Shown: piece by piece, positions 10,731 through 42,814 of the stretch
Layout of the letters: each line of letters begins with the position of its first letter
Position numbering within the stretch: position 1 is the first letter of the stretch
Origin: an uncultured Ruficoccus sp.
Lineage (GTDB): Bacteria; Verrucomicrobiota; Verrucomicrobiia; Opitutales; Cerasicoccaceae
Direction: 5' to 3'
Assembly (NCBI GenBank): GCA_965140785.1
Contig: OZ223475.1
Location: 235,814 to 299,813 of the forward strand
DNA length: 64,000 nt
Position numbers and translations under genes: made by a program
Notes under the pieces: generated by a model
Told to the model about the DNA's origin: nothing
The model's database searches: none
The model's input: the letters and a program-made list of their open reading frames with translations, nothing else

Positions 10731-10889
10731 GGGACAGGCCGGGCCATTGAGGCGAACACCGCTGGGGCAGTCAGGCATTCGACAGTATAGTATCGGAGCT
10801 TGAGGGATAGGATTAACCACAAGCGGGCAGACCGGAGTCTGCTCGCGCATGCCCCGAATGAGGTAAAAAGGGTAAGGATGAAAACGCTA

Positions 10890-15756: not shown

Positions 15757-18242
15757 TTAAGGCTGAGCTGGCACGTCGGCGGGCGTGTCTGCCGGCGGCT
15801 GGAAGCGGTTCGCCAGCTCAGGAACCTCCGACTGCAGGAGGGTGAGTACCCAACGGGCAATGACGACACTGCCGGCAGTCGAGAAGTGTGTGCGGTCTTC
15901 GACCTTCTCGGTCGGGCTGAAGACGAGGCTCTCCTCGGCGGTCATTTCGGAGAATTTATCGTAACTGCACTGATGCAGGTCCAGGCAGGGGACCTGCATC
16001 TCCTCCGCGACGATGCGGACCGACTCGGCATAGGGCTCGAGGCTGTCCGAGAGGGTGCCGTCCGAGTGGTAGGTGCGGCGGCAGACCGGAGTGATCAGGA
16101 TGGGCTGCGCGCCCTGCTCGCGGGCCTCCTGTACGTAGCGCCTCAGGTGGTCGCGGTAGTCGGTTTCTGCTGCGCTCTCACGCTCGGGGCCTTTGCCCTT
16201 CTGGTCGTTGTGTCCGAACTGGATGAGCACCCAGTCCGGATTCAGTTCCATGGCCTTGTCCCAACGGCCCTCGCTGCGAAAGCTGCGCGAGCTGCGGCCG
16301 CCCACGGCGGTGTTCTCAACCCGGATGCCGGGGCCGGTCCAATGCTCAAGCGCCCAGCCCCAACCGGCCTGGTCTTTCTTGTCGCTCTTACCGGTCACGG
16401 TCGAGTCTCCGACCAGGGCGACGAGCGTCTGGCCGGTCTCGCGAACGCCGGCTGTGTTCAGGTCGAAGCGGGGAATCTGTGGCATGGGCTGTCCGTATTG
16501 AAGGGCGCCCGCATCGGGCGTGATGTCGTTGAAGTAACCGGGCTCGCATCCGGGAAGCTCCTCGTCGCTGAGCAGCATGGGGTCCACTCCGCGGTTGCGG
16601 GCGGGACTGTCCACGCGCAGGGCCAAGTCGTAGTGGTCAGGATCGACGAAGCCCGCGGGCCCGTAGCCGACCCAGGTGCTGTTGGTCTCGCGTCCGGCCT
16701 CGGCGGCCTGCGCCATGCTCTGCTGCCAGGCCTCGGCGATCGAGCGTTCGGAGTCGTTGTCCCGTTCATCGTCCCAGGGCCGGGGGAAGTCCGGAGTCGC
16801 GAGGATGAATACATTTCCGTCGGTCTTCCAGTCGGGGAGGGGGAGCGGGTCTGAGGAGTGCACCCAGCGGCGGCACCAGAACAGGTTGTTAAAGTAGTGG
16901 TAGTTGGGCGTGGTCAGCGTCATGGCGAGATGGTGGTAGTTCCTGTTCACGGCCGTGTCGGAGGTGCTGGTGTTGTGGTAGACCCAGACCTCGACATCGG
17001 GGTAAAACTGTTCGCCCTGTCCCCAGTTGCGCAGGGTCCTCCTTACTGTCGAGGAAGATGTTGCGGTAGATATACAGGGGCCCCTGCTGGGGGGCCTTGA
17101 TGCGGAAGGCGCAGCGGGCGCGGATGACAATATTGTCGTGCCACTGGCCATTCACGCTGGGGCCCATCGTCTCCATGCCGTCGTCGTTCAGGTGGCGAAT
17201 GAGATTGTGGTGAACCTTCAGGTCGGGGTTGGCGTCGGGGTGGGTGCCCTCCCAAGGCGGGTTGCCCACGTCGTCGATGCCATCCCAGTGGTCGTGAATG
17301 TAATTGTCGTGAATGTCGTGGCCGCCCTGGGTGTTCTTGATGGCGATGCCGACGCGGTCGTAGAAGCCGCCTACTTTCATGGCCTGCCAGTTGTCCCACG
17401 AGCCGCGGTACCAGGTGTCGGAACCGGCGTAGGGGCTGAGGCTGATGCGGTTAAAGCGCAGCTCGGCGTTCCGGGCTCCATGGTCGAGGACGATCCCGTA
17501 ATCGGCCGGATCGATCACGCACCGCTCAACCATACTGTTGGCCGAGCCCTGAACAAGCACGCCAATGGCAGAGTTGCGCAACGTGAGATTTCGCACCACG
17601 GTGAAGTCCTGGCCGTTGGTGTCCACGACCGGTTCCCGCGGGGCCACGGTCATGGTCATGTTTCGCGGGTCCAACTGGTCCTTGAAGCGTACGAGCAGCT
17701 CCTTCTCGTGTTGACGGTACATGGCCAGCGCCTTGACGCCGTTCCAGCCGGTGGAGCCGACGCCGTTGACAAAAGCGTCCTTCCACAAGATCGCGGGCAT
17801 GCCTTGCTTGGGGGCGGGAGTGTCTGCCGACCCGGTGCGTTTTTCGTCCAGTGTGGTCAGTGTTTGGCCGTTCGCGGTGACTGTGAAGGGGAAGAAGTCC
17901 AGCGGGGCGCGGTAAACGCCCGGCCCGATATCGGGCGCCGGTTCCCAGGCCAAGTCAACGGGTGTGCTGCCGTCAATGATGACGCTGGGTCCGGCACCCT
18001 CCAGGACCACGGGCTGCTCCTCTGTGCCGTTGTGCTGAAATTTAACCCGCTCGCGATACACGCCGGGCTGATCCGGACGGTGTCGCCCGGACCAGCTGCG
18101 TCCAGTGCCGCTTGGATCGACGGGTAGGCTGTGCCGTTGGGAGCTTCGCCGACCAGAGGTCGGCACCGTGTGTCGGGTGAAGGCTGAGTGCCAAGATTGC
18201 GCTAGTCAGGAGGGAAAGGGTATGTTCGCGAAATAAAATCAT
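15757..18242 (-). CDS. Secreted right-handed beta-helix protein fused to an SGNH (rhamnogalacturonan acetylesterase/CE12-like) domain; three single-base frameshifts, ~828 aa when repaired
   Basis: Signal peptide, SIQAALDAAGPGDTVRI.PGVYRE, PbH1-like repeats (HDNYIHDHWDGI, HHNLIRHLNDDGME), then LVGDSTV..GWG, GGRSSRSF, IQFGHND, DRTHFS. Frameshifts near 18153, 18070 and 17035. Confidence 0.8.
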
Positions 18243-18385
18243 TGAGATATTATATTAACGGTATAAAATATAGAGGCAACGATGAGGCGTGACTATGCTT
18301 TTTATGCTTAAATAAATGCCTTGAGCGGCATTCGGGGTAGAAGAAGTGTACTGCCGTCCTAAGAACTTTTGCTGTGTTTTTATTT

Positions 18386-18395
18386 TTAACGTTAA
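18386..18395. promoter_or_regulatory. Second copy of the putative LacI operator TTAACGTTAA
   Basis: About 145 nt upstream of the 18242 start in AT-rich DNA; a variant TTAACGGTAT lies at 18255-18264. Confidence 0.55.
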
Positions 18396-18689
18396 TTAAT
18401 TTGATATTATATCGTTATCTTTTGCAACCTAAAATTGCATGGGTTTCTATTTTTTTTGATAAAAGTTGGATAGGGAATGCTGAATGAATTTACATGTATC
18501 GTCGTCCCGGGCGGGTCAGGAATGGGATTTTGGGTTGACTGAAAACGAGACCGCCTTCGGACTCATTCAAGTCGTTCGGTGGCCCAAAGCGTCCACTCTT
18601 CAAGCTTTTCTCGTCTCAGGACCGCAAAATGGAGTGAGGCGACCACGTTTTTTCGTACCAGCGCAAAGAGATACTGGTGGGAGAGGGTT

Positions 18690-18790
18690 TTGATGTGTTT
18701 GGACTTCAGGTAATCCTTGGTCTCCGCAGTGGTAAACTACGGCCCGTTATTGGAACGGATGTGATTGGTAACACCATGGTAATCAAGCTT
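18690..18790 (-). mobile_element. Small decayed IS3-family orfB fragment
   Basis: Minus strand reads HGVTNHIRSNNGP*FTTAETKDYLKSKHIKTL, a degenerate form of HGxPxxIRSDNGPEF. Confidence 0.6.
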
Positions 18791-18878
18791 TCAGCTTAGA
18801 GCCATTCCGATCTCCGTCTTTGTCGTGCTGCTGCGCAGGCCACGGCGTCAAAGATTAGGGGCTTGACTTATTGGCATT

Positions 18879-18898
18879 TTGCGTAAATGTTTACGCAA
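18879..18898. promoter_or_regulatory. LacI-family operator, locus B copy 1 (TTGCGTAAATGTTTACGCAA)
   Basis: 20-bp near-perfect palindrome just downstream of a -35-like TTGACT (18863); related copies at 23161, 24304 and 25500. Confidence 0.8.
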
Positions 18899-18944
18899 CC
18901 TATTTGGGAGGCGAACCTTAATCGCTAACTAATGCATTGATATT

Positions 18945-21900
18945 ATGAAATTATTTTTCATGGCCTGTGGATTTGGGTTTGTTGGTGGTTGCTCAATGGC
19001 GCGTTTTATGCCGCGGATGCGTGTTGGGTTGCTTGGCCTTGTCGGGCTGGTGCTCGGCGTTTCCTGCTCAATGGGCGCAGTGAGTGTCTCTGAGATGGAA
19101 GATGGGCGGTTGCAGATTGTCATCACGGCTCCCGGGGTTGATGCCGCGCACACGCGTGTGATGATGGATATAGATGAAAACCTCGGCACGGGTTATGGAG
19201 ACGAGGGGGCGGACCTCATGATCGAAGGGGCGACGCTTTATCAATATCCGGCCGGGGCATCGGGGTGGAGTTGGAATTCGCTGGGTCCTGTCTCCAATAG
19301 CACCGAGAACGACCAGCTCACCTATACGCTTAGCGTGTCTCCTGAAGCGCGGATTTTACGGGTCTATGTGGAGAATTTTGACGATAACTGGGAGGTGACG
19401 GGACGTTATCCCGCCGAAGGAGCAATTTCCGTGGATATGACCACGGTCCCAAAGGCCCAGTCTGAAGGAGGCCAGGACGAAGGTACCCTGAGCGGAAAGC
19501 TTTACCGCACACCCTCCGGGGGGCTGGCGGTTGTTGTTTTGGGGCAGAATCTCGACCCCGGCCGCCTTCGCGTTTTCATCAATACGGATGAGAGCGCCAC
19601 GACAGGCATGGCGCCGTTTGGTGCCGACTATCTGATCGAAGGGTTAGTGCTGTATCAGTATTCGGGATCCGGCACGGACTGGAGCTGGACGCCTCTTCGC
19701 CAGCTTACGCCCGAGACTCGGGAGGGGGGGATTCTCTACCCGGTCGAAGGCTTGAATGACGGAAATACCATCGAGTATTTGATCGAGAAAACGAATACGG
19801 ACTGGGAAGTTATCGACCGCTTCCCGCAGGAGGGGACGAGGAAAATAAAAAGGTCCGATCTGAACGAATATTCTTACCAAGGGCCCGATCGACAAGTCGG
19901 GCCTAAAAATTATCACATGGAAGAGCTTCGGACGTTTTGTGCCGCCCTCGTTGAATGTCGGATTCGATGAGCGCATGGCAAAGATGGACTGGCAGGAGGT
20001 TCCGCTGACTCAGGCGCAGTGGGAGGCGGACGGGTTTTCCGAGCCCTTGCCCCTGGTCTTCAATCTTCAGGACGCGGAGACGGAGGAGGTCTTTGTCCTC
20101 GAACCCGATCAACTCCTTACGTCGGGCGAATGGACCCAGTGGATGGGGGAGGCCGACGGCGTGCGGTGGCGGGTGATCGGTCACGAGGATGAGCGGGGGG
20201 ATATGGATCTCTATGCGCAGTTGAAAAGCGATAAAGAGCGGCTGCTGCGCTTGGGAGTCGGCGTGGAGATGCCGCTGGAGGGATGGGTGTGGCATGACGA
20301 TGTCGAGTATCGCAGGCCGATCGAGGACGAGGAGGTGTACGCATACACCGGGAGTAGTCCGTATGGCCTGGACGGGGCTGTCTCCAAGTATCCGCTCGGA
20401 GTCATCAGTGATGAAAATCGTAGCCTGATTCTTGAGACCGATTTGAGCGAGCCCGTCGTCTTCAACATCGCAGCCCTCCCGCAAGAGGAGACGTTCGCGA
20501 TTTATTATGACGTGGCACTCACGCCGTTGACCCGGAAATTCCCGGGCGAGGCCGTGCTGCACCTGAGCTTGCGAGCACGCACAAGCCAGGAGCAGCAGGC
20601 CTTTCGCCTGGCATTGGATGAGCTCTACGGTCGCTATCCGTCGTTGTTCGAACGGCGTCCGGACGCGGTCGGATTGTGGATGCCTTTCACGGACATCTCA
20701 AACATCCCCGATCCGCAGGACTTTGGATTCGCCTATTATGAAAAAGGGGGAGCGCTTGGTTCGGATGTCGATTTCTGCCACGAGAACGGGGTCTTGACGC
20801 TGGTGTATACGGAGCCGTGGCTGTATTGGCTTCCCATGCCGCAGGGGATGGAGCGGACCCCGGAGTCCGCGCTGGGGCTCATGCGCAGTCTTTCCGCCAG
20901 CGGCGCGGGCCGGCCGGGCGAATTTGCTTCGGCGGGGCTACTGGGGGCGGCGCGATCGGTTGACGGCGATATTGTCATGACTTTTCAGGACGTGCCCTGG
21001 AATTCCGGGGCGCGCATGGAGGTGAGCACGGACCCGGAGTTGCCGACTCGGGACGGCGCGACGGTGAATCGGGCGATGGCGGAGTTCGCGTTCATGCGTG
21101 AGCAGATGGAACACGAAAAGGTGGATGGCATCTATCTGGACTCGCTCAGCGCGATGTTCACGATGGACTATAATCCGGCGGCGCTGGCCGTGGCCGACTA
21201 TCCGGCGACCTTTACCGCCGATGTGCTCAAACCCGGACTCGCGACTCCCGTCGCCGCCTATGAATTCATCGCGGCGCTGGCTGGCTATGCCCGGCAGGAA
21301 GGAAAGTATCTGATGGGGAATTTCCCTTGCTGGAATTTTCCGTTCTTTATGCCGTTGATCGATATTCCGGGGGAGGAGACCCACTGGTTCGGAGAGGGAC
21401 GGTACGAGCGCATGCCGGATCGGGAGATGAACTACCGGCGCGCGATGTCCGGCCAGAAAGCCTGGGGATTTCTCATGAATGGGAAGTACGATCACTTCGA
21501 TCCGGAATTCGCCCGCCGCTACTTCGAGGACTGTCTGTTCTGGGCCTTTCAGCCGAGTCTCTTCAGCCACGATGCGGCGAACGATCCGTACTGGGAAAAC
21601 CCGGAGTGGTACGAGCGGGACCGTCCGTTTTTCCGCCGTTACATGCCGTGGATTCAGCGGCTGGCGGCGGTGGGCTGGCGTCCGCAGGGGAGCGCTGTCG
21701 TCTCCGATGAGGAGATTCAAGTCGAGCATTTTTATGGTGACCGCGACCCGGTTCAGTTCGTTACGGTTCGAAACTCAAGTCAGACACCGATAAGCACGTA
21801 TCTGGAAGTACCGCTCTCCGGTGAGGACGCGCAGTGGGTGTGGATGAATCCGCTGGACGGGGAGGCCGGATGGATTTTTACAGATGCTTCGGGCATGGGC

Positions 21901-23115
21901 ACTGTTCCTGTCTCGCTGGAGCCGGATCAGGTGCGCTTGCTGGCCCTGATGCCGAGCGGCGAAATCGCGTCCGAAATCGTGTTTTTGAAAGACTGGGCGG
22001 ATGGCAAGGGGGATGCCGGTCGTTTGATCGACAAGCTGGCATCGCTTCAAGACGAACAAGAGGCGGGCTTGCTCATGGGGGTGGAAATTTCCCAGCCCGC
22101 GCTGCGTGGTGTCGAGAATGACATCTGGGTGGGGGTAAAGAATGTCACCCCATCGGTGCTGACGCTGGCCCATCTCCGACTCGTGCCAGCCGATGGGGAA
22201 GCCCTGGAGCTGCTGGATGAGCCGGTCGAGATTACTCCGTCGCAGATGCTGGGCATCCCTGTGGAGGTCTCCGCCGGCTTCGGGCAGGATGGGGGCTTCA
22301 GCCTCGACGCCGATTTCACCGTTGAAGACGGTGGTGGCGAGCACCGTTTGAGCCAGCCCGTGACGTGGACCCTGCGTGATCCCGTTGCCATCAGCTTGAC
22401 GGATCCGCATGTGATATCGATTCAGGAGCGGGCGAGTATCTCGTTGCGGGTTCGCAACCTGATGAATGCGCCGGCGACGATTACTTTTACCTGGGACGGT
22501 GATTACGGGGAGGGTGAATCTGAAGTGACCCTCAAGGCCAAGGAGGAGCGTAGGGTTTACCTGCCGGTTGTTTCCGGCGGGAGGTCGGAAGGAGCCGTTA
22601 CGGTGCGGGCCGAATCGAGGGGCGTGGATCTCTTTAAATCGGTGGCCACCGTGACGTTCCTGGGAGCGCATGCCAGTGTCGTGCGGGATAGCTCGGTGGC
22701 GGTGAGTACCAGCGGGGACTTCCCGGGGTATACTCCGCAGACGTTGCGCGACGGCGTGACCCGGCCTGGAGCCGAGATGGCTTTTAACGAGGCCGCGTGG
22801 GCATCCGAAGACGTGCCCGGAGACACTTGGGTGCGCTTTGATTTTCCTTCCCCGATCGAAGTCAGTGAGGTGAAGCTTTACTGGAATGAGGAAGGGGGAG
22901 TCCGCTACACCTCTCAATCCGGGGTGGTGGAGGGTGTGCGGGAAGACGGTTCCACCTGGCCGCTGCAAAACTACACCTCCGAGCAGGGGGCTGCCGTCAC
23001 CACGGTTTCGTTTGATCCGGCCCGTGTGGTGGGGCTTGTCATCCGCCAACCGGACAGTCAGGGCCCTGTTTCGCGTCCCGATATTCTGTGGTTGAACGAG
23101 ATCGAGGTGCACTAG
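18945..23115 (+). CDS. Very large secreted multidomain protein (~1390 aa when a frameshift at ~19936 is repaired): two N-terminal repeat modules, putative glycoside-hydrolase-like barrel, C-terminal discoidin/F5-8-like domain
   Basis: ORFs 18945-19970 and 19939-23115 join if one T of tttt (19935-19938) is removed. Repeats D.D.N..TG...GAD..IEG..LYQY; core with LVYTEPW, VDGIYLDS, LMGN; C-terminal LRDG...AWAS...WVRFDF. Confidence 0.7.
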
Positions 23116-23160
23116 ACGGGGAACCTCCGAGGGGGAATCGGGGTGGCGAGTTCTGATTCT

Positions 23161-23176
23161 GTGTAAACGTTTGTCC
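23161..23176. promoter_or_regulatory. LacI operator, locus B copy 2 (GTGTAAACGTTTGTCC), upstream of the LacI gene (autoregulation)
   Basis: Shares the GTAAACGTTT core with the other copies. Confidence 0.6.
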
Positions 23177-23249
23177 TTTACCTTCGCCTGCTCGGCGGGC
23201 ACAGTTCGTTGTCATGGCGGGGGTGCTAGTGCTCCTGTTTCAGGCAACT

Positions 23250-24263
23250 ATGGACATTCGTGAATTTTCATCATTGGTAGGGGTATCGACAGCCACCGTC
23301 TCCCGTGCGTTTTCCGGACGCGGGCGCATCAGTAAAAAGACGCAGGAGCGGATCCTCAAGGAAGCCCACAAGCACGGTTTCAGCCCGAATATTAACGCGC
23401 GTCGCCTTTCGTCCAGGCTCAGTGGTGTGATCGGCCTGTACTACACCTTCAGCGACGAGATCATATTCGACTATTACAATATGGAACTGGCGCAGGAAAT
23501 CGCCAAAACATGCGCCGAGCGCAGTATTTCCCTGCATCTAGTGTTGCGCAGCCAGTCCCGCAAAGACCTGCAATTGAACCACTTGGTGGCCGGAAAGGGC
23601 TTGGATGGCGTGATTATAGTGACAGACAGCCTGCGCAGTCTGGATGGGCTTGAGGATGTGATTCACAACTGCGCCACGGTTGTGATTTCCAACCAGATTT
23701 GGACGGATAATCCTTCGCGCGGGTTCATCCACCTGGATTTCGACAGCGGCATTGCCCAGGCAGTTACTCGTCTCGTCAGCTTGGGGCACCGGCGGATAGG
23801 GTTCATTCGTGGCTTGATGGATGAGAGTAAGTTCGAGGCCTACGGTCGTGCCTTGAGGCAGAACGGGATCAGCCTGGACAGCGAACTCGTCACCACGGCC
23901 TCGAAGACGATACTTGACGGGCAGCAGGCTATTTCCGGTCTCCTGAAAAAGAACATCACCGCCGTTATTTGCTGTACGGATCTGCTGGCCTTCGGAGCGC
24001 TTCAAGGGGCGATCAACGAGTCCGTATCCGTGCCGGATGAACTTTCCATCGTTGGCATGGACGACCTCGCGCTGACCTCGCAGACAGCTCCCCCGCTCTC
24101 AAGCATCGGTGTGCCCCGCAATCGTATCGCCGAGGGCGCGGTGAAGATGCTCGATCAAATGCTTGATGCCCCCAAGCACAGTGAAGGGCAAAACGGTCGC
24201 TTCATGCATACGGTGAGCACCTTTTTGGTTGATCGTGCTTCGATCGCGCCTGCCCGGCTTTAG
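23250..24263 (+). CDS. LacI-family transcriptional regulator (locus B)
   Basis: MDIREFSSLVGVSTATVSRAFSG, PNINARRL hinge helix, LGHRRIGFI, VPDELSIVGMDD, PPLSSI. Confidence 0.92.
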   Translation: MDIREFSSLVGVSTATVSRAFSGRGRISKKTQERILKEAHKHGFSPNINARRLSSRLSGVIGLYYTFSDEIIFDYYNMELAQEIAKTCAERSISLHLVLRSQSRKDLQLNHLVAGKGLDGVIIVTDSLRSLDGLEDVIHNCATVVISNQIWTDNPSRGFIHLDFDSGIAQAVTRLVSLGHRRIGFIRGLMDESKFEAYGRALRQNGISLDSELVTTASKTILDGQQAISGLLKKNITAVICCTDLLAFGALQGAINESVSVPDELSIVGMDDLALTSQTAPPLSSIGVPRNRIAEGAVKMLDQMLDAPKHSEGQNGRFMHTVSTFLVDRASIAPARL

Positions 24264-24303
24264 GCCACCTGAAGGATGGGGGAACGGGAACTTTTGCGAT
24301 TTG

Positions 24304-24319
24304 GCGTAAACGGTTACGC
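24304..24319. promoter_or_regulatory. LacI operator, locus B copy 3 (GCGTAAACGGTTACGC)
   Basis: One mismatch from GCGTAAACGTTTACGC; about 45 nt upstream of the oxidoreductase start. Confidence 0.8.
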
Positions 24320-24363
24320 TTTTTGTCTTGACGCTCCTCGCACAAGCTGATTTTCATAGAGGC

Positions 24364-25482
24364 ATGAAGATTGGAGTGATTGGCATGGGCAAGCGTCTCA
24401 GCCACATGGTCAACAACTGCATGCGTGAGGCGGAGCCTGATTTGAAGGTTATCGCCGCACTCGATCCCGATGAAGATGCTGTGAGGAAAGCTCTGCCTGA
24501 GGGCGAGGCCGCCTCTGTCAAATTCGTGAAAACGATCGAGGAGCTGGTTATGTCCGGCGTGGACGCGATCGCGATCGGGACGCGGTGTAATCTGCATGCG
24601 CGGTATGCGATCGAGGTGTCCCGGACGGGGTTGCCTCTGTTTTTGGAAAAGCCGGTAGCGACGACGATGGAGGATGCCCTGGCGCTGGAAAAAGCGTTCC
24701 AGGATTCCCGCTCCGAGGTCGTGGTGAGTTTCCCGCTGCGCGCCTCTCCGCTTTGTGTGCGGGTGAAGCAGTTGCTGGAGGAGGGCGTCATCGGGATCCC
24801 GCAGCACGTAATGGCCGTGAACTATGTTCCTTACGGCGATGTTTACTTTAACTCGTGGTACCGGGACTATGGTGTGACCGGCGGCCTTTTCCTGCAAAAG
24901 GCCACCCATGATTTCGATTACCTGTCCTATTGTCTGCGCAGCCCGATTGTGCGGGTGGCCGCGATGAAGTCGTGCGGACGGGTCTATCGGGACGCCAGTG
25001 TTGCGGATTGCGATCCCGATCCCGATTGCTATTATTATGAGCAGATCGGAACAGAGAAGACGGGGATGAACGAAGATTCCTCCAGTGCGCTGATCGAATT
25101 CGCTAACGGCACGCAGGCTGTTTACACGCAGGTCTTTTACTCCAAGCGTGGGGCGGCTGCGCGGGGGGCGACTTTTTCCGGTCACCGGGGCACGCTCAAG
25201 TTCGACTGGTACGAGAATATGGCGAAAATCGTCCATCACCAGCGTCCGTTCGAAGACACCATCAAAGTGGACTGCGAACTGAACCATCATGGTGGAGATG
25301 GTGTGCTGGCCGAAAATTTCGTAAAAGTCGTGCGCGGAGAGGCCAGCTCGATCTCGAGCATTTGGGCAGGCCTGCAGAGCGTTTATGCGTGCTTGGCCGC
25401 CAAGGAGAGCTCAGAGCGCAATTCTTTTTGCGAGGTAAGAAAAATTGAGCAAATAAAGCATGCCGGACTTGGGATGGCATAG
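24364..25482 (+). CDS. Gfo/Idh/MocA family oxidoreductase
   Basis: MKIGVIGMG, LFLEKP, GGLFLQKATHDFD, HHGGD. Confidence 0.88.
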   Translation: MKIGVIGMGKRLSHMVNNCMREAEPDLKVIAALDPDEDAVRKALPEGEAASVKFVKTIEELVMSGVDAIAIGTRCNLHARYAIEVSRTGLPLFLEKPVATTMEDALALEKAFQDSRSEVVVSFPLRASPLCVRVKQLLEEGVIGIPQHVMAVNYVPYGDVYFNSWYRDYGVTGGLFLQKATHDFDYLSYCLRSPIVRVAAMKSCGRVYRDASVADCDPDPDCYYYEQIGTEKTGMNEDSSSALIEFANGTQAVYTQVFYSKRGAAARGATFSGHRGTLKFDWYENMAKIVHHQRPFEDTIKVDCELNHHGGDGVLAENFVKVVRGEASSISSIWAGLQSVYACLAAKESSERNSFCEVRKIEQIKHAGLGMA

Positions 25483-25499
25483 CTTTTGCTTTATGGTTT

Positions 25500-25515
25500 G
25501 CGTAAACATTTACGC
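25500..25515. promoter_or_regulatory. LacI operator, locus B copy 4 (GCGTAAACATTTACGC)
   Basis: One mismatch from the consensus; upstream of the PEP-CTERM/pilin/GH/SSS operon. Confidence 0.8.
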
Positions 25516-25617
25516 ATCCCGATTCTGAGATGCATAAAACTGAATAAAGCGTCTATTTAACCGATAATCTAAAACATCTGTCTAACTCAAAAAATAACCA
25601 AACTGTTATCTACCATC

Positions 25618-26304
25618 ATGAAATTACACAAAGGTATCAAACTGTTAGCTGGTTTATTGGGAGCCTTCGCGCTCTGCACCTCTGCTTATGCCGGAACGTA
25701 TCGGACGATCACGATCGACGGGAATTTTGACGACTGGGATGGCATAGACCCCCTGACCTCCGAAACGACCGCAGTGGGAGATCCGGTTGACTTCGTCTCT
25801 ATGTACGTCGCCAATGACGGGGATAATCTATACCTCCGTGTAGTCTACGCGTCTGATGTTGCCGTAAATGACGGAGGAACAACGATCTATATCGCGATCG
25901 ATACGGATAACGACGTGAAGACCGGGTTCGATGTTTACAGTCTAGGCATCGTGGGCTCCGAGGTCGGATGGTCGAACGACTCAGGCTTCCAGCAGTCCAA
26001 AGAGTTTTTTAATACCGGTGTGACCCTCAACGACGGGCAGGCGGGTATCGCGCCCTATGCGACCACCACTACCCAGCAGGAGATGTCGATCAGCCTTTCG
26101 GCGACGTACGCGAATGACTCCAGCCCGGTCTTCCCGAACGGGACGATTGCCATCGCTTTTTACACCAGTGGAGCGACGACGGATAGTGTTCTGGGCAAGG
26201 GCGTTTATACGTTTGCCATCCCCGAGCCCGGTCATTATGCCATAGCGGTGTCGGCGTTGCTGGGAGTCGGACTATTGTTCCGCCGCCGCCGTCGCCGTTC
26301 GTAG
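25618..26304 (+). CDS. PEP-CTERM surface protein with a CBM9/DOMON-like beta-sandwich
   Basis: Signal peptide (TSAYA-G), ITIDGNFDDW, ANDGDNLYLRV, IAIDTDNDVKTGF, and C-terminal IPEPGHYAIAVSALLGVGLLFRRRRRRS. Confidence 0.9.
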   Translation: MKLHKGIKLLAGLLGAFALCTSAYAGTYRTITIDGNFDDWDGIDPLTSETTAVGDPVDFVSMYVANDGDNLYLRVVYASDVAVNDGGTTIYIAIDTDNDVKTGFDVYSLGIVGSEVGWSNDSGFQQSKEFFNTGVTLNDGQAGIAPYATTTTQQEMSISLSATYANDSSPVFPNGTIAIAFYTSGATTDSVLGKGVYTFAIPEPGHYAIAVSALLGVGLLFRRRRRRS

Positions 26305-26338
26305 TCAACGTTTAGATCGCAGCAAGGGCCACCCGGTT

Positions 26339-26980
26339 ATGTTAAAGCTAAAACGAAACGGGCTCAGTCTCATCGAGTTGCTGGTTGTCATCGCCGTGGT
26401 CGGAATTCTGTCCAGTATTCTGGTCACGGGCGTCAGCCATGTGAAAAACAAAAGCAACCAGATGAAAAGCCTCAGCAACGTTCGCAGTATCGGCAAAGGG
26501 GTGCATCTTTATACCCTTGAGCACGGGGAAAATCTCCCCGTGTGGCATAACTATAACATCGGCCAGTACTGGTGGCAATTGTTGCGGCCCTATGTTGGCG
26601 ACGACGACCAGGTTTTCGGCAGCCCGGCTCATCCTGAGTTCGACGCGACGAATGACACGACGATAGCTCAGACGATTTCATACGGGTGGAACTTCGCGGT
26701 GATCGGGCGACATATCGGAGACCCCTCCTATGACGGCGACTATATGTTGCCCATGTATCTCTTTGATAATCCGCCGGAAACCCTGGTGTTGACGGACGGG
26801 CCCCGGTACGACTGCTGGGGCTACGTCACGACGGTACATGCGGCGGATCCGGAGCGCTACGGGGACGGCAAGGCCGTGGCCTTGTTCCTCGACGGGCATG
26901 CCGATGTGCGGGAGCAGTCTGCCTTTACCCTGGAGGATCCCTATTTCCTCCCGGAGGTTGCCATGCCCGCGATGAAATAA
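26339..26980 (+). CDS. Prepilin-type N-terminal cleavage/methylation protein with a degenerate H-X9-DG C-terminus
   Basis: KRNG/LSLIELLVVIAVVGILSSIL, SLSNVRSIG, SYGWN, and C-terminal RYGDGKAVALFLDGHA. Confidence 0.88.
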   Translation: MLKLKRNGLSLIELLVVIAVVGILSSILVTGVSHVKNKSNQMKSLSNVRSIGKGVHLYTLEHGENLPVWHNYNIGQYWWQLLRPYVGDDDQVFGSPAHPEFDATNDTTIAQTISYGWNFAVIGRHIGDPSYDGDYMLPMYLFDNPPETLVLTDGPRYDCWGYVTTVHAADPERYGDGKAVALFLDGHADVREQSAFTLEDPYFLPEVAMPAMK

Positions 26981-26992
26981 CCTACGTTTACC

Positions 26993-28396
26993 TTGAAAAT
27001 TCTACTTTACACTTGCCTCGCAGGCTTTGTGCTTGCGGCCACGGTTTCCCATGCCTCCCGTGCCTCCGATGCACGGGAGGCCTTCGGGAAAATCAAATCG
27101 TATGCCTGTTACTACGGTGAAGGAAAGCTGAAGGAGCTGGCCGGTCGCGATGCGGTTATTATCGAGACGAATAACCAGAGCCCGGAGGACATCCGCTTGC
27201 TGCAGCAAGGAGGCACGCTCGTCGTCGGTTATATCAGCATCGGCGAGGACGATGTATTGCGGGTAGGGGACGCCAAGGGACCGGGCGGGAAAGATTCCGC
27301 TTACTTTGACCGGGATAAAGACGGGCAGCCCGATAAGAACGGGGTCTGGGATTCGTACTACGCGGACTCCAGGCAACCGGCCTGGCGTAAGTACTTCATG
27401 GAAAATATCGCCAGGATGAACGATGTTTACCATGTGGATGGATTCTTTCTGGACACCGTTGATACGAGCGAACTCTATCCGGAGTCTGAGCAGGCAATGA
27501 TCTCTCTGATCCGGGAGTTACGCCAGGCTTACCCGGATAGCCTCATTGTGCTCAATCGCGGTTTTCACACCGTCGCGCAACTGGCTCCGGTCATTGACGG
27601 CGTGATGTTCGAGAGCTTTACGTCCAGCTATGACTGGGCGAGCAAGGACTACATCCTGCTGACGCCGTCTTCCTGGGATTACGGGCTGGAAGTCTGGCAG
27701 GAGGTGCTCAAGCCGGCCATGGACAAATACGGCGTGGTCGTCCTCGCCCTGGATTATGCGCCCTCCGCCACTTCACCCCTGGTGCAGACAGCGATGGACC
27801 GGGCTGTCACGTTCGGGTTCGTGCCGGAGGTCTCCTCTATTTATTTGGATACCATTTATGAGATCGGGTATGAGCCTCGGAAAAACCCGGACTATCTCAC
27901 GATGTTCTGTACACCGGAGCGTTTGAGCTATGAACTGGCGGAGGCGGCCAATGGTTTTCCGAGCGGGACACGCGTCATGCCCAGCTCCTCCTACCCGGAT
28001 TACGAGGTGAAGGCCGTGGTCGATGGCATCGAGGACAAGAGTACCCTCGGGTGGCGTCAGCGAGCCTGGGCTTCGCGGGAAGAGGACGAGGAGCACTGGC
28101 TGGAGTTCACGCTGCCGCGCCCGGTGAGGGTGGACGGCCTTACGATCAGTTGGGCCAGGGACAATGGTACGCTCTATGCGACGCGGGACTTTCGGGTCGA
28201 GGTGAAGCCGCCGGACGGCGGTGATGAGTGGGTGTGCGTCAGTACGGTCTCGGATAACCGCGAGCCCAGCAATAGTGTTCAGTTTGCTCCGATGGATGTC
28301 TCCGCCTTGCGCGTGGTCCAGGACGGGGGAGAGGGCTCACCGCTACGGCCCGACCTGATGTGGGTGGAAAAAGTCGTCCTCTCCTCGGTCGATTAA
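26993..28396 (+). CDS. Secreted endo-alpha-1,4-polygalactosaminidase-like hydrolase (PelA hydrolase/TM1410-like, GH114/GH166) with a C-terminal discoidin-like domain
   Basis: Signal peptide; YACYYG, VGYISIGE, DGFFLDTVD, LIVLNRGF, DGVMFESF, VLALDYA; TTG start. Confidence 0.8.
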   Translation: MKILLYTCLAGFVLAATVSHASRASDAREAFGKIKSYACYYGEGKLKELAGRDAVIIETNNQSPEDIRLLQQGGTLVVGYISIGEDDVLRVGDAKGPGGKDSAYFDRDKDGQPDKNGVWDSYYADSRQPAWRKYFMENIARMNDVYHVDGFFLDTVDTSELYPESEQAMISLIRELRQAYPDSLIVLNRGFHTVAQLAPVIDGVMFESFTSSYDWASKDYILLTPSSWDYGLEVWQEVLKPAMDKYGVVVLALDYAPSATSPLVQTAMDRAVTFGFVPEVSSIYLDTIYEIGYEPRKNPDYLTMFCTPERLSYELAEAANGFPSGTRVMPSSSYPDYEVKAVVDGIEDKSTLGWRQRAWASREEDEEHWLEFTLPRPVRVDGLTISWARDNGTLYATRDFRVEVKPPDGGDEWVCVSTVSDNREPSNSVQFAPMDVSALRVVQDGGEGSPLRPDLMWVEKVVLSSVD

Positions 28397-28420
28397 CCGG
28401 AAGGTGAACAGGATGAAGAG

Positions 28421-30412
28421 ATGAGCATCATCGATTGGGGAATCGTCACGTTACTGTTGATGGCGATGATCGGCATCGTGCTGTATTCGCGCCGGTACAT
28501 GCGCGGCGTGGCGGACTATCTCGTGGCTAACCGTTGCGCCGGGCGTTATCTGCTCACCCTGTCCGAGGGGATCGCCGGGCTGGGAGCCATCACGATCGTG
28601 GGAAGCTTCGAGATCACCTATCAGGCGGGCTTTGTGCCGATCTGGTGGGGGTTCTTTCTGTCGCCGCTGGGGTTGATCATCGCGTTGTCGGGATTCGTTA
28701 TTTATCGCTTTCGTCAGACGCGCTCGATGACGATGCCGCAGTTTATCGAAATGCGTTATGGGCGGTCTTTTCGTGTTTTTTGCGGCATGCTCGCCTTCCT
28801 TTCGGGCCTGATCAACTTTGGGGTTTTTCCGGCGATCACGGCCCGTTTCTTCATCCATTTCTGCCAGTTGCCGGAAGCGTTCACGCTTCTTGGAACGCCG
28901 ATAGCGACCTTTCCGGTGGTCATGGCGATTGAGCTGAGTCTGGCGTTGTTGTTCGTCTTTATGGGCGGACAGATCACGGTTCTGCTAACGGATTTCGCGC
29001 AATCGACATTCTGCCTGCTCGCCTTCCTGGTCATCATGCTGTTCCTGCTCTGGATGTTCGATTGGCAGGACATTATCGGTGCTCTGAAAACCCGCCCGGA
29101 CGGTGAGTCCATGATTCATCCTTTCAGAGCGGGGAACATGCGGGACTTCAATCTCAGCTATTACCTGATCGGCGTTTTCATGGTGGCCTATACGACGCGG
29201 GCCTGGCAGGGGAGCTCCGCCTATAACTCCTCGGCCCGCACCGCGCACGAGGCCCGCATGGCGGGGATTCTCGCCAACTGGCGCGCCATTGCTCAGGCGA
29301 TGGCCCTCTTGCTCATGCCGCTGTGCGTGTACGCCGTCCTGCACAACCCGGTTTTCAGCGGGCAGGCGACGGAGATTCTCCGTGATCTCAGTCAGTTCGC
29401 CGACCCGGTGGTGCGGCAGCAGATGACGGTGCCGGTTGGTCTCCAGCATATTCTGCCCGTGGGGATGACGGGCCTGCTGGCGGCGGTGATTCTGGCCGCA
29501 GCCGTCAGTACGGACAACACGTACATGCACTCCTGGAGCAGTATCTTTATTCAGGATGTGATCATGCCGTTTCGGAAAAAGCCGCTGGGCCAAAAACAGC
29601 ACATCCGGCTTTTACGTTTCGGGCTGGTGGGCGTCGCGTTCTTCGCCTGGTGCTTCAGTGTGATTTTTCCGCTGCGGGATTACATCTACATGTTTTTTGA
29701 CATCACCGGAGCCATCTTTCTGGGCGGGGCCGGCTCTGTCATCATCGGCGGGTTGTACTGGAAGCGGGGGACGACGGCGGGCGCCTGGGCCGCCATGCTC
29801 GTGGGGGCCGTGCTCTCGGTGGGCGGGCTCTGCGTCCAGTCTTATTGGACATCCATTTCGCCCACGCTGATTCACTGGTTCCCGCAGTGGACATATCTGC
29901 AAAGCGTGGCCGATGACTTTCCCTATAACGGGCGTCACATGATGTTCTTTGCCATGTTGTGCGCGATTTTTTCCTACGTCGGCGTTTCGCTGCTCCAAAA
30001 TTACGTGCATAATATGGACAAGCTGCTTCATCGCGGCGCATACCGCCGGGCGGATGATCCATCCGTCGATAAGCCGCTCAAATCCTGGCGTAGCCTGGGG
30101 ATGGGGGCGGAATTCACCTTTTGGGACAAGGTGATTTACATCAGTACGATTGTCTGGGTGCTGGGATGGTGGTGCGTGTTTCTGATCGGCAGTGCGGTCA
30201 ATCTGGTGGCCGACATTGGCGAGGACGCGTGGATAGCCTTCTGGAAGATCAATCTGTGGATTTCCGTGCTGCTCGCCGTTTTTACCTCCCTGTGGTTTAT
30301 CGCGGGCGGCATTCGGGATGTGCGACAGATGTTTCACGACCTGCGGCATGCGAGGGTGGACGAGGACGATGATGGCCGGGTCATCGATGGTGAAAACGCC
30401 GATGACCGGTGA
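28421..30412 (+). CDS. Sodium:solute symporter (SSS) family protein
   Basis: IDWGIV..., VADYLVANRCAGRY, TMPQFIEMRYG, GGLYWKRGTTAGAW; many TM helices. Confidence 0.9.
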   Translation: MSIIDWGIVTLLLMAMIGIVLYSRRYMRGVADYLVANRCAGRYLLTLSEGIAGLGAITIVGSFEITYQAGFVPIWWGFFLSPLGLIIALSGFVIYRFRQTRSMTMPQFIEMRYGRSFRVFCGMLAFLSGLINFGVFPAITARFFIHFCQLPEAFTLLGTPIATFPVVMAIELSLALLFVFMGGQITVLLTDFAQSTFCLLAFLVIMLFLLWMFDWQDIIGALKTRPDGESMIHPFRAGNMRDFNLSYYLIGVFMVAYTTRAWQGSSAYNSSARTAHEARMAGILANWRAIAQAMALLLMPLCVYAVLHNPVFSGQATEILRDLSQFADPVVRQQMTVPVGLQHILPVGMTGLLAAVILAAAVSTDNTYMHSWSSIFIQDVIMPFRKKPLGQKQHIRLLRFGLVGVAFFAWCFSVIFPLRDYIYMFFDITGAIFLGGAGSVIIGGLYWKRGTTAGAWAAMLVGAVLSVGGLCVQSYWTSISPTLIHWFPQWTYLQSVADDFPYNGRHMMFFAMLCAIFSYVGVSLLQNYVHNMDKLLHRGAYRRADDPSVDKPLKSWRSLGMGAEFTFWDKVIYISTIVWVLGWWCVFLIGSAVNLVADIGEDAWIAFWKINLWISVLLAVFTSLWFIAGGIRDVRQMFHDLRHARVDEDDDGRVIDGENADDR

Positions 30413-30596
30413 AGCTTTTTTTTCGCCCTTTTATGGGGACGTGCGAGGGCTCAACCATGAAGCATGGAACGCTATTGTGCCTTTGCGGGGTTATTGACTT
30501 TTGACGGTGATTGCAAATCCACCGACCCGGTGGGCATCAGCTCTTGCCATTTTCTCCAAGTTTTTGAGGAAGGGAGCACGCACTCTTCCCGCACAC

Positions 30597-30631
30597 AAAA
30601 AAAGCCCCCGTCTGACCGAGACGGGGGCTTT
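30597..30631 (-). terminator. Rho-independent terminator (probably bidirectional) between convergent operons
   Basis: aaagcccccgtct-gaccg-agacgggggcttt stem-loop with an A7 tract on the left (U-tail for the minus strand). Confidence 0.85.
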
Positions 30632-30665
30632 CTGATATGGCTGCTAAAGGAGTCTGCCTGCCTGC

Positions 30666-31517
30666 TTAAGCAAGCGCAAAGATCGCGTCCATCGCCCGCG
30701 AGGTGTTATAGATGATCACATCGGGGGCGTGCTTGTACATCGGCACGGGCGGGATCATTTCTCCGGCCACCCAGCCGGTGTAGCCGACTTCTTTCAGGGC
30801 GGCTACCACGCCGGGCCAGTTGACGTCACCCGCGAGCAGGTCGCAAAAGCCGTCCACGGTGCCGACCGGGCGTTTGAAGTCTTTGAAGTGAACGCGTCCG
30901 ATGCGCTCGCCGAGGATTTGGATCCAGTCCTCGGGGTAGCCGGTGGCCAGCGTATTGCCCACGTCGAGGTAGCTGCGGACAAAGGGGCTGTCGAATTGAT
31001 CGATGAACTGCCGCATCTCCAGCGGGGAGAGCAGGAACTTGTTCCAGACGTTTTCGATACAGATCTGTACGCCCGCTTCCGAGGCAGCGGGCAGGGCGTC
31101 CGCGATGAATGCCGTGGCGCGCTCCCAGGCCAGGTCGTAGGGGACGATTTCACAGTCGGGGATGAAGTCTACGCCCACCGATCCTGGAACCACAAGGATG
31201 CCGTCGAGCTCCAGCGTGTGTGCCACCTCGATCTGCTTTTGGAGAATGGCGGCGGCCTTGTCGCGATTAGCAGTGTCGGCCGAGGCCGCGTTCGCGCCCC
31301 AGTACAGGCCGCAGGCCAAGCCGCTGATGGCCAGACCATGTGCTTCGGCCAGTTCGCGGACCTCCCGAAGGTCGGACGCAGTGGAGGCGAGGGATACCGG
31401 ACCGGTCTCAGCCAGTTCAAGTTCGATCGCGGGAAAGCCGGCGTCGTGCGCCAGCGAGAATTTTTCCGGCAGGGATAAAGCCGGGTTGAAGGACCAGATA
31501 TTAATGCTCTTTTTCAT
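30666..31517 (-). CDS. Sugar phosphate isomerase/epimerase (xylose-isomerase-like TIM barrel, AP_endonuc_2 family)
   Basis: ICIENVWNKFLLSPLE, YLDVGN, VHFKDF, GDVNW, GWVAGE metal-binding motifs. Confidence 0.88.
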   Translation of the reverse strand: MKKSINIWSFNPALSLPEKFSLAHDAGFPAIELELAETGPVSLASTASDLREVRELAEAHGLAISGLACGLYWGANAASADTANRDKAAAILQKQIEVAHTLELDGILVVPGSVGVDFIPDCEIVPYDLAWERATAFIADALPAASEAGVQICIENVWNKFLLSPLEMRQFIDQFDSPFVRSYLDVGNTLATGYPEDWIQILGERIGRVHFKDFKRPVGTVDGFCDLLAGDVNWPGVVAALKEVGYTGWVAGEMIPPVPMYKHAPDVIIYNTSRAMDAIFALA

Positions 31518-31543
31518 TCGGTGAAGGGGAGTTGGTGGTGATG

Positions 31544-32569
31544 TTACAGGCTCACGGTTTGCCCGCTCCGGGCCGACTCGATCTCGGCCAGCGCGACGCG
31601 GACCGATTGGGTAGCCTGCCCGGCGGTAGCGTCCTCGATCGGAGAACCACTTTCCAGGCATTGGATAAAGGCGGCGATCTCGTTGTAGTAGCCGCCCAGG
31701 TTGGAGATGTTACCGCCCTTGAAGCTGGATTCCTGCTGGCCGGCTGTGGCGAAGGGCAGAGCCTGCTTCGGAGAGCCGGGCTCGGTGATGACGAGCGTGG
31801 GCTCGGCGCCGCTGTCGTATTCGAGGGTGGCGTTTTCGTACATGGCCTGGAAAGCCATCTGGAAGCCCCACGTGTCGGGGTAGTTCCAACCTCCCTCTGC
31901 GTATACGACGGGGCCGTCGAAAGCATAATGGGTAAAAATATGGCTCGGCCCGGTGGGGTCGAAATGCGCGTGGCTGGTGACGGCCTTGGGCTGGCCGAGC
32001 AGGGCGAGGACGAAGTCCGTGTCGTGGATGTGCAGGTCGAAGGCAGCGCCGTTACTGCGGGCTTCGTCGTTGAGCCAGTTGCCTTCGGCATAGGCGGGAC
32101 GGGAGGAGCGACGCTGCATGGTCAGGCTGAGTAGTTGGCCACCTTTGCCGCTGGCGTGAAACTCCCGCAGGGCCTGATACTCGGGCCAGAAGCGGATGCA
32201 CTGACCCACCTGGAGAGGCACCCCGGCCTGCGCCGCGGCGGCGCTGATCCGCTCGGCCTCTTCGGTGCTGAGCGCGAGCGGCTTTTCACAGAAGACCGCC
32301 TTGCCCGCCGCGATGCCCTTGAGCGCGAACTCCAGGTGCAGGTCCGTGGGCAGGCACACGTCGAGCACATCGAACGCTGTCGCCGCCAGGGCCTCTTCCA
32401 CCGTTGCGTACACCGGCACGTCGGCCATGCCGAGGTCGTCGAGCTTTTGACGTGCGGCCTCGCCCTTGAAATCGACGACGCCTACGAGCGTGGCGTTATC
32501 CAATTGCGCGTAAATCTGGGCGTGCATCGCCCCCATAAACCCCATTCCCACAATAACCGTTTTTTTCAT
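31544..32569 (-). CDS. Gfo/Idh/MocA family oxidoreductase
   Basis: IVGMGFMG, VCLPTDLH, VFCEKP, RFWPEY, DLHIHDTD. Confidence 0.9.
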   Translation of the reverse strand: MKKTVIVGMGFMGAMHAQIYAQLDNATLVGVVDFKGEAARQKLDDLGMADVPVYATVEEALAATAFDVLDVCLPTDLHLEFALKGIAAGKAVFCEKPLALSTEEAERISAAAAQAGVPLQVGQCIRFWPEYQALREFHASGKGGQLLSLTMQRRSSRPAYAEGNWLNDEARSNGAAFDLHIHDTDFVLALLGQPKAVTSHAHFDPTGPSHIFTHYAFDGPVVYAEGGWNYPDTWGFQMAFQAMYENATLEYDSGAEPTLVITEPGSPKQALPFATAGQQESSFKGGNISNLGGYYNEIAAFIQCLESGSPIEDATAGQATQSVRVALAEIESARSGQTVSL

Positions 32570-32758
32570 AATAAGTATGTTTTATTGTTAGATAAATATT
32601 TTAAACGAGGAGCCTGTGCCATTCTCATCGGGCAGTCGCTCAGGTCGCGCGATGTGCGTTCGAGGAGGGACGATTGGCTCATAGTGCCTAGGATACCATA
32701 TTTCATAATGGGCTATTATTGTTGATTTCAGAACTTTTTTTGATTAAATCGGAAATGA

Positions 32759-36954: not shown

Positions 36955-36982
36955 ACAGGTCACATTTCTTTTTGAAAGTGCT

Positions 36983-40839: not shown

Positions 40840-40846
40840 CAAGCCC

Positions 40847-42796: not shown

Positions 42797-42814
42797 CGTC
42801 GATCTTTAACAGCG

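Follow-up and report, generated by a model that had tools for sequence, protein, structure and literature searches.

Pel and galactosaminogalactan (GAG) hold together the biofilms of many bacteria and fungi, and their enzymology is known almost only from producers. According to PMC12054363, four galactosaminidase families (GH114, GH135, GH166 and GH191) have a common barrel, synthesis in producers requires the GH114, GH135 and GH166 enzymes, and the first GH114 activity came from a polymer-degrading Pseudomonas; an earlier note on the DNA studied here, which held that such enzymes are mostly described from producers, needs qualifying on this last point. The closest solved relative of the enzyme considered here is the PelA hydrolase domain (GH166; PDB 5tcb, 9cgy), part of a periplasmic protein that also includes a deacetylase and whose gene belongs to a pel synthesis operon. 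GH114 enzymes (Ega3; the Pseudomonas sp. 881 enzyme, from a polymer degrader according to PMC12054363) and GH191 enzymes (TM1410, Env-GH191) fall under the Pfam model PF03537, as does the enzyme considered here, but none of them has been described with its gene neighbourhood or accessory domains. This enzyme is encoded in a 64,000-nt stretch of contig OZ223475.1 from an uncultured Ruficoccus sp. (hereafter the window), within a region (18879-30412) that contains eight open reading frames (ORFs), all on the + strand.

In Bacteroidota, a polysaccharide utilization locus (PUL) is a substrate-specific gene cluster under a regulator, in which surface binding protein(s) and secreted endo-enzyme(s) are combined with an importer. 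The window region would work alike, except that it lacks SusC/SusD and instead has a PEP-CTERM-anchored protein, a pseudopilin and an inner-membrane carrier of the sodium:solute symporter (SSS) family. We propose that in this marine-type bacterium of the Puniceicoccales (Verrucomicrobiota) it is probably a PUL-like regulon, repressed by LacI, for the catabolism of an extracellular polymer with a high content of alpha-linked N-acetylgalactosamine (GalNAc) or galactosamine (GalN), the likeliest candidates being Pel- or GAG-type cationic exopolysaccharides. The catabolic, repressor-controlled role is well supported by the gene architecture and by conservation of the locus without synthesis genes. 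The substrate is the best reading given homology and the genes found beside the enzyme in relatives, from which an alpha-1,4 linkage and GalN/GalNAc as the sugar would follow. Ecologically, the organism may feed on the biofilm matrix of other microbes. The features of the region are as follows.

18880..18897: predicted operator O1, palindrome TGCGTAAATGTTTACGCA with one mismatch to GCGTAAACGTTTACGC, 48 bp upstream of the large gene
18945..19970 and 19939..23115, +: large secreted protein, called as two ORFs
18945..19937, +: 5′ part of the large protein, with signal peptide and two repeats of about 130 aa (59% identity to residues 1-310 of a Ruficoccus protein)
19939..23115, +: 3′ part of the large protein, with a core of about 530 aa, an Ig-like middle and a C-terminal discoidin-like domain (69% identity to the Ruficoccus protein)
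23214..24263, +: LacI-family repressor with helix-turn-helix (HTH) domain and periplasmic-binding-protein-like sugar sensor (Pfam LacI, Peripla_BP_1, Peripla_BP_3)
24304..24319: predicted operator O2, 45 bp upstream of the oxidoreductase ATG
24364..25482, +: cytoplasmic Gfo/Idh/MocA NAD(P) sugar oxidoreductase (Pfam GFO_IDH_MocA N- and C-terminal domains)
25499..25516: predicted operator O3, 102 bp upstream of the PEP-CTERM gene
25618..26304, +: PEP-CTERM protein with signal peptide, a domain of about 170 aa and a PEP-CTERM anchor (sequence features)
26339..26980, +: pseudopilin-like protein with class III signal, G|LSLIE, and C-terminal LFLDGH motif (Pfam N_methyl, NCBIfam GspG-like N-terminus)
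26993..28396, +: secreted GH166-like (PelA-hydrolase-like) TIM-barrel glycosidase with C-terminal discoidin/CBM32-like domain (Pfam, PDB matches)
28421..30412, +: SSS-family sodium:solute symporter, 663 aa (Pfam SSF)
30397..30427, +: two overlapping terminator-like hairpins with T-runs, at or just past the symporter stop codon (consensus scan only)

The genes for the PEP-CTERM protein, pseudopilin, hydrolase and symporter are spaced by 34, 12 and 24 bp and, like the other ORFs, lie on the + strand where the earlier note had placed them, these four in one operon; its catabolic interpretation also stood, in that a repressor, three operators, an importer and a cytoplasmic oxidoreductase were all present. 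The consensus scan for promoters and terminators performed no better than on shuffled sequence, and Rfam gave no match in 18000-31000. It was also noticed that the 780-bp intergenic stretch preceding the large gene (18166-18944) is AT-richer (GC content 0.52 in 18001-20000, about 0.6 around it), with neither a notable ORF nor an Rfam match within it.

Three copies of a 16-bp palindrome (consensus GCGTAAACGTTTACGC), with one mismatch each, were located at 18881, 24304 and 25500, and each copy is intergenic and upstream of one of three same-strand transcription units. When GCGTAAACGTTTACGC was allowed up to 3 mismatches, 0.23 matches were expected from shuffled sequences, and 3 matches were reached in 1 of 100 shuffles; for the exact 18-mer with up to 3 mismatches allowed, the chance expectation was 0.00. 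The idea that the units share an operator was thus borne out, with three copies, one per unit. The LacI gene lying among the units, absent from the earlier list of genes, encodes an HTH and a sugar-binding domain (Pfam, NCBIfam), and the motif scan placed the palindromes ahead of its presumed target genes. Since three palindrome copies precede three units, the locus is by its sequence a three-site LacI-type regulon with predicted operators.

The hydrolase is a 467-aa protein with a signal peptide, and its translation contains the motifs GYISIGE, DGFFLDTVD, NRGF and MFESF. It matched Pfam GH114 (PF03537) with 33.9 bits (cutoff 27), followed by a C-terminal F5/8 type C domain; the PF03537 model also takes in GH166- and GH191-type sequences. 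In a phmmer search of the PDB, PelA hydrolase domains were the sole family members retrieved (5tcb, E 2.9e-19, residues 31-287). A profile built from 46 homologues matched PelA with E 1.9e-39 (138.8 bits) across the whole barrel of about 260 residues and matched the GH191 structures (9ep5, TM1410) far more weakly (4.7e-11 to 2.5e-10); the proteins 9jom and 9jos, named as GH114 TIM-barrel proteins, reached only 0.0027-0.016, and Ega3 was not listed at E<=10. The NCBIfam model TIGR01370 gave E 9.3e-5 and 21.6 bits, well under its cutoff of 181. With the four motifs present, the GH114 cutoff passed and PelA as the closest solved relative, the earlier description of a secreted PelA-hydrolase-like enzyme agrees with the hidden Markov model assignment, and the protein can be placed by homology in the PelA-hydrolase/GH114 superfamily, with a (beta/alpha)8 barrel fold implied by the sequence match.

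Asp154 (of FLD) and Glu207 (the Glu of FES in MFESF) are invariant in the 46 aligned homologues. Glu207 aligns with the PelA position at which 5tcb and 5tsy, the E218A entry, are not the same, a variant reported in PMC4928890 to be inactive on Pel biofilms, so that, judged by alignment, the catalytic Glu of PelA is kept in the hydrolase as Glu207. The likeness to the PelA domain extends to the FLDT Asp and the catalytic Glu (PelA E218), both kept, whereas the window enzyme is stand-alone, carries a discoidin domain, has a repressor, an importer and an oxidoreductase as neighbours and belongs to a separate clade of the Planctomycetota-Verrucomicrobiota-Chlamydiota (PVC) bacteria; relatives add an N-terminal repeat. 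The discoidin profile had its best PDB matches (E 4.6e-5) in CBM32 modules that bind chitosan, which weakly suggests an amino sugar as the ligand of this domain. The closest named relative, with 77% identity, is from Ruficoccus amylovorans (Puniceicoccales, Cerasicoccaceae), and close relatives have already been named 'endo alpha-1,4 polygalactosaminidase' by NCBI; the hydrolase is a clade-level new variant of a known enzyme type. The conserved locus seems undescribed. In the literature library searched, no paper linking GH114/GH166 enzymes to PVC catabolic loci was found, the broadest query being covered to its best 15 of 1028 papers. In a metagenome-assembled genome of Myxococcota (L042:9167-13166), the gene for a 948-aa protein with a GH114-type domain was noticed to precede one for an APH-family kinase.

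A pattern scan of one genome per species yielded 80 loci, and a maximum-likelihood tree of the catalytic domain was built from 81 rows (the window and all 80 loci, none dropped). The window fell in an 11-row Verrucomicrobiota clade (support 100/97) nested in a 23-row clade of Verrucomicrobiota and Phycisphaerae/Tepidisphaeraceae (100/99), which consists of the window and loci L001-L022. Neighbours were identified by tblastn and motif search; several of these loci are contigs of 5-13 kb, and the counts are therefore lower bounds.

SSS gene, adjacent: at least 14 of the 23 rows
Orthologous oxidoreductase (33-77% identity): at least 16 of 23
Pseudopilin orthologue or prepilin-motif ORF directly upstream of the hydrolase: at least 15 of 23
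PEP-CTERM protein homologue: at least 13 of 23, with the PEP-CTERM tail in 12 of the 13
Large protein: at least 5 of 23
NahK-like kinase: at least 6 of 23
PelF-, PelB- or PelD-like gene: 0 of 23

The cassette (PEP-CTERM protein, pseudopilin, hydrolase and SSS carrier) and the oxidoreductase are conserved across Verrucomicrobiota and Phycisphaerae. A LacI orthologue with at least 40% identity was found in at least 9 of the 23 rows; in the Cerasicoccus loci the orthologues of LacI and of the SSS carrier are 70% and 79% identical to the window proteins, respectively. As to context, 21 rows of the clade had catabolic-type neighbours and 0 had pel-type neighbours, 'catabolic' being a lenient label that any one tblastn match to a transporter, regulator, kinase, SIS or oxidoreductase query earned when no pel-like match was found. 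Of 18 rows with pel context, 16 were in the other main branch of the tree. The Roseivirga PelF query was confirmed by NCBIfam (173.8 bits, cutoff 100), while the other two queries are presumably PelB- and PelD-like, given their TPR and GAF-GGDEF domain content and the usual make-up of pel operons.

These comparisons bear on the possibility that the hydrolase trims or remodels the organism's own exopolysaccharide (EPS), as PelA, Sph3 and Ega3 do in producers, with the PEP-CTERM protein marking an exosortase-linked EPS system. PEP-CTERM/exosortase systems are often tied to EPS production, and the requirement for GH114, GH135 and GH166 enzymes in producers (PMC12054363) would fit as well. However, the Pfam scan of 43 ORFs of the window revealed neither a glycosyltransferase nor PelD or PelG, no match to the PelF-, PelB- and PelD-like queries was obtained by tblastn in its 64 kb, and pel-like neighbours were seen in 0 of the 23 clade loci, in agreement with the absence of pel synthesis genes remarked upon earlier. 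In addition, the LacI repressor, the sugar symporter, the cytoplasmic dehydrogenase and the N-acetylhexosamine (HexNAc) salvage kinase of relatives are catabolic features, and elsewhere in the window another such pair of PEP-CTERM protein and pseudopilin stands at the head of a cluster with an enzyme and a sulfatase. Self-directed trimming is therefore very improbable, and degradation of an external polymer is the preferred reading.

For the nature of that polymer, the genes beside the hydrolase in relatives were informative. By way of background, bifidobacteria have a Leloir-like HexNAc pathway of the galacto-N-biose/lacto-N-biose (GNB/LNB) type, composed of N-acetylhexosamine 1-kinase (NahK), a uridylyltransferase and a 4-epimerase. 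In the two Cerasicoccus loci (L001, L002), three genes lie between LacI and the oxidoreductase and encode a NahK-like kinase (E 3e-80 to the solved NahK), an NTP-transferase and a GalE-like epimerase (E 9.5e-60), a set with likeness to the GNB/LNB-type pathway that is also seen in Opitutaceae, Rariglobus and other loci but is absent from the window. The NahK-like kinase recurs in L006, L007, L019, L022 and L026. In both Cerasicoccus loci, an operator-related palindrome (2 mismatches) separates the NahK operon from the oxidoreductase gene, these being the only 2 matches in 1.24 Mb of retrieved loci, and this proximity would tie the kinase set to the same regulon type. In a locus of Tepidisphaeraceae (L018), the hydrolase is adjoined by genes for a Spherulin4/GH135-like protein (E 3e-45) and a galactokinase-like protein. 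Outside the clade, the hydrolase of a Firmicutes locus (L027) is accompanied by an ABC importer, a GntR/UTRA regulator, an AgaS-family isomerase (E 7e-105), a tagatose-kinase-like PfkB protein and a GH4 alpha-galactosidase-like enzyme, and that of L024 by a NagB-II-like deaminase, a PIG-L deacetylase and a ROK kinase. The neighbour genes therefore appear to point to galactose (Gal), GalNAc and GalN as products, fitting Pel and GAG, and the predicted amino-sugar substrate is in this way independently supported. Apart from this, Spherulin4/GH135 (Sph3-like) genes were noted within 10 kb of a GH166-like hydrolase in two Tepidisphaeraceae (L018:2-874 and L010:15573-16397).

Several observations weigh against so specific a substrate, or against the proposed regulon as a whole. 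No NahK, NagA/B or AgaS gene was found in the 64 kb of the window by Pfam and tblastn, and its one APH-family ORF (60315-61358) is not a NahK orthologue; moreover, the Firmicutes and Deinococcota loci that give the Aga-pathway clues lie outside the window clade. This clade is not sister to the pel-operon hydrolases, and for this reason the label 'GH166-like' reflects the few structures that have been solved. The family profile also touches an endo-1,3-fucanase as a distant PDB match. In the account of PMC12054363, TM1410 (GH191) neither bound nor cut GAG oligomers and a fungal GH114 enzyme did not cut Pel, and substrate specificity in the GH114/GH166 superfamily is not safely predictable. The leniency of the 'catabolic' label counts on the same side, as do the frameshift of the large gene in this genome and the absence of GH109-type enzymes from the matches of the oxidoreductase, both described below.

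Some of these points would fit the same catabolic machinery acting on another substrate, such as a HexNAc- or Gal-containing alpha-glycan from an algal, invertebrate or bacterial capsular polymer. Family members inactive on GAG or Pel are reported (PMC12054363), NahK phosphorylates GalNAc and N-acetylglucosamine (GlcNAc) alike (PMC6264712), the window clade stands apart from the pel-operon hydrolases, the superfamily profile gave low scores to endo-1,3-fucanase and to cycloisomaltooligosaccharide glucanotransferases, and other loci of the window suggest sulfated algal-type glycans (sulfatase, GH42). Yet no other solved relative comes nearly as close to the enzyme as the PelA hydrolase domain, four kinds of neighbour found in relatives (GH135-like, AgaS-family, tagatose-kinase-like and GH4 alpha-galactosidase-like) suit Gal, GalNAc and GalN specifically, and neither a sulfatase nor a further glycosidase family was found in the regulon by Pfam. 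We regard a different substrate as rather unlikely, although a good deal less so than self-directed trimming, and retain a Pel- or GAG-type polymer as the preferred candidate.

The large protein upstream was expected, from the earlier note, to be an enzyme of about 1390 aa. It is indeed a single gene in relatives, the Ruficoccus amylovorans homologue being one protein of 1367 aa, but in the window it is split by a 1-base frameshift: the first ORF aligns with residues 1-310 of this homologue and the second from residue 311, and the alignments stop and restart on either side of a run of four T (19935-19938) at which the frame breaks, leaving ORFs of 341 aa and 1058 aa (with an internal ATG at 19975). 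Either the sequence is in error at this point or the gene was lost recently. If real, the system might be decaying in this strain and the locus be partly functional, for which the frame break itself (19935-19938), the occurrence of the same truncated form of 1046 aa in the protein collection, the neighbouring beta-helix/GDSL gene that also looks frameshifted, and a third ORF in which a PEP-CTERM tail runs into the next signal peptide with no stop could all be cited. On the other hand, breaks at short (near-)homopolymer sites, several of them within 25 kb, also fit assembly error, every other gene of the regulon is intact, and the downstream part is 69% identical to the intact homologue with no more breaks. 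Decay is thus a possible but doubtful explanation. As to the neighbouring gene, a beta-helix ORF (16889-18205) and a GDSL/SGNH esterase ORF (15757-17151), both within 15757-18205 on the - strand, overlap by about 260 bp and read as one gene frameshifted near 17020-17045 that diverges from the studied locus.

In the 3′ part of the large protein, the sole Pfam match was the C-terminal F5/8 type C domain, and the 5′ part had none. Both N-terminal repeats (motif D.D...TG ... GAD.MIEG ... Y.Y ... W.W) are homologous to the N-terminal extension of longer hydrolase homologues of 620-800 aa (hhalign probability 99 and 98.8), an extension that the window's own hydrolase lacks, and the C-terminal discoidin domains of the large protein and the hydrolase are homologous to each other (hhalign probability 99.6). 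Since both of its accessory modules are shared with the hydrolase family, a common substrate may be argued for. The core of about 530 aa had no match in Pfam, NCBIfam or the PDB, while a phmmer search of 1.84 billion representatives returned 1254 at E<=1e-3 and 346 at E<=1e-30, with residues about 85-615 as the common part; a search for shorter relatives gave one fragment. Among 28 distant relatives scanned with Pfam, another domain was found in 16 and none in 12, and the core was matched in 0; the partners were F5/8 type C (10), NPCBM_assoc (4), CBM4_9-type (4), CBM9 (1), SLH (1) and a Melibiase_C-like sandwich (1). Such partner domains, mostly carbohydrate-binding modules, are by their assignment the company of secreted carbohydrate-active enzymes, and the large protein suggests that a putative carbohydrate-active family exists which is widespread and for which neither model nor structure is available. 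Seven further pairs of hydrolase and large protein agree in the length of their longest contig and are probably co-located.

Two possible kinships of the large protein were rejected. The family has DG.YLDS, one Asn and D..G.E invariant, co-linear with DGFFLDT, NRGF and DG.MFES of the hydrolase, but a distant GH114/166-type barrel was not supported beyond these co-linear motifs, with profile probabilities of 13% (narrow) and 0.2% (broad). Kinship to DUF5696 of the Firmicutes locus L027 had a probability of 0.07. The language-model neighbours of the core were DUF6259 and GH123_N clusters (0.90-0.93), which serve as leads only.

The PEP-CTERM protein ends in P-E-P, a hydrophobic helix and an Arg-rich basic tail as read from the sequence, and all 10 orthologues aligned have the P-E-P unchanged; PF07589 did not score, and the NCBIfam PEP-CTERM models gave only E 2e-4 to 0.01. 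Its domain of about 170 aa had no Pfam or PDB match, and no exosortase gene was found within the 64-kb window. Compared with the N-terminal repeat of the long hydrolases, this domain gave a profile probability of 78, and compared with the repeats of the large protein, 11%; BLASTP of the latter pair revealed just one short common motif. Kinship to the N-terminal domain of the long hydrolases is thus possible by profile comparison. In L057, L058, L060 and L064, a GH114-like domain is followed by a domain of the PEP-CTERM-protein type in one ORF of 724-728 aa, and a related ORF of 727 aa in L053, the only one of the five scanned with Pfam, ends in a type IX secretion system (T9SS) C-terminal sorting domain. 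Such fusions support a shared function of the PEP-CTERM protein and the enzyme.

The pseudopilin scored above cutoff with PF07963 (26.4 bits, cutoff 21.2) and TIGR02532 (26.8 bits, cutoff 16.3), and its orthologues align across both phyla (Verrucomicrobiota, Phycisphaerae). A parallel is offered by Verruconatronum alginivorum (Opitutales), in which, as described in PMC13274419, a pulG-like pseudopilin with 67 paralogues lies inside an alginate depolymerisation cluster and one pseudopilin is over-expressed on alginate. That cluster differs in having alginate lyases, its pseudopilin is explained there as part of type II secretion, and no PEP-CTERM partner is mentioned in the passages of PMC13274419 that were consulted. 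The conserved pseudopilin/PEP-CTERM pair and the core of the large protein are the unexplained parts of the locus.

The second PEP-CTERM/pseudopilin pair of the window lies at 40808-43456, at the head of a cluster that also encodes a beta-helix protein, oxidoreductases and a sulfatase. This second cassette (40808-49560, +), located by an AraC regulator, comprises a PEP-CTERM/PATR protein, a pseudopilin that is 25% identical to the first, a beta-helix protein, an FAD oxidoreductase, a Gfo/Idh/MocA protein and a sulfatase; in its first ORF, no stop codon separates the PEP-CTERM tail from the signal peptide of the CBM4_9 protein that follows.

The closest PDB match of the oxidoreductase was scyllo-inositol/L-glucose dehydrogenase (2e-12), followed by other sugar dehydrogenases, and 13 orthologues start at the Rossmann motif and have no signal peptide. 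A GH109-like, NAD-dependent alpha-N-acetylgalactosaminidase was considered and rejected, as no GH109-type enzyme was among its 37 PDB matches at E<=0.001. The SSS carrier had SGLT1 and vSGLT as its best, distant PDB matches (about 1e-6). The substrates of these two proteins would, from their context, be products of the polymer. In addition, at 30666-33622, genes for a Gfo/Idh/MocA protein and a xylose-isomerase-like TIM barrel (-) diverge from an AraC gene, and the LacI operator is absent there. All three genes recur close to the hydrolase in L008 (51-63% identity), and in L015 the pair adjoins the SSS gene. This module may serve the same pathway in an accessory role.

The following scheme can be envisaged. 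Outside the cell, the exosortase-anchored PEP-CTERM protein and the pseudopilin would hold or present the polymer, which the GH166-like endo-enzyme and the large enzyme would cut, possibly each taking differently acetylated stretches. Small products would enter through the SSS symporter, the cytoplasmic Gfo/Idh/MocA enzyme would oxidise an imported sugar, and a sugar product would free LacI from its operators. In relatives, NahK together with the nucleotidyltransferase and the 4-epimerase would convert GalNAc to UDP-GlcNAc.

A broader proposal, which we put forward only tentatively and consider less likely to be right than wrong, is that PVC bacteria (Verrucomicrobiota, Phycisphaerae) share a system dedicated to cationic alpha-1,4-GalNAc/GalN polymers as a counterpart of the Bacteroidota PUL, with the pseudopilin and the PEP-CTERM protein as a capture device, the second enzyme founding a new family (at least 1254 representatives) and the Gfo/Idh/MocA enzyme opening a new route for the deacetylated sugar. 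If true, a conserved consumer system would show who recycles the carbon and nitrogen of the biofilm matrix in nature, and it would be a source of naturally secreted, stand-alone matrix-degrading enzymes. For glycan capture without SusC/SusD in PVC bacteria, the locus would also provide a concrete case to which the hugely expanded pseudopilin and PEP-CTERM families could be related.

Elsewhere in the window, a 510-aa ORF at 36960-38492 (-) has no Pfam match and a third-position GC content of 0.41, compared with 0.55-0.86 in the other listed ORFs; it is either not a real gene or foreign DNA. An RHS-repeat protein of 1178 aa (1864-5400) and a protein of 1233 aa without Pfam match (7149-10850), both on the - strand, are encoded upstream of a LacI/MFS_2/Gfo cluster. 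At 49775-51613 (-), a protein with a B12-binding domain adjoins a URO-D-family protein by an AraC regulator, an arrangement resembling a corrinoid-methyltransferase pair.

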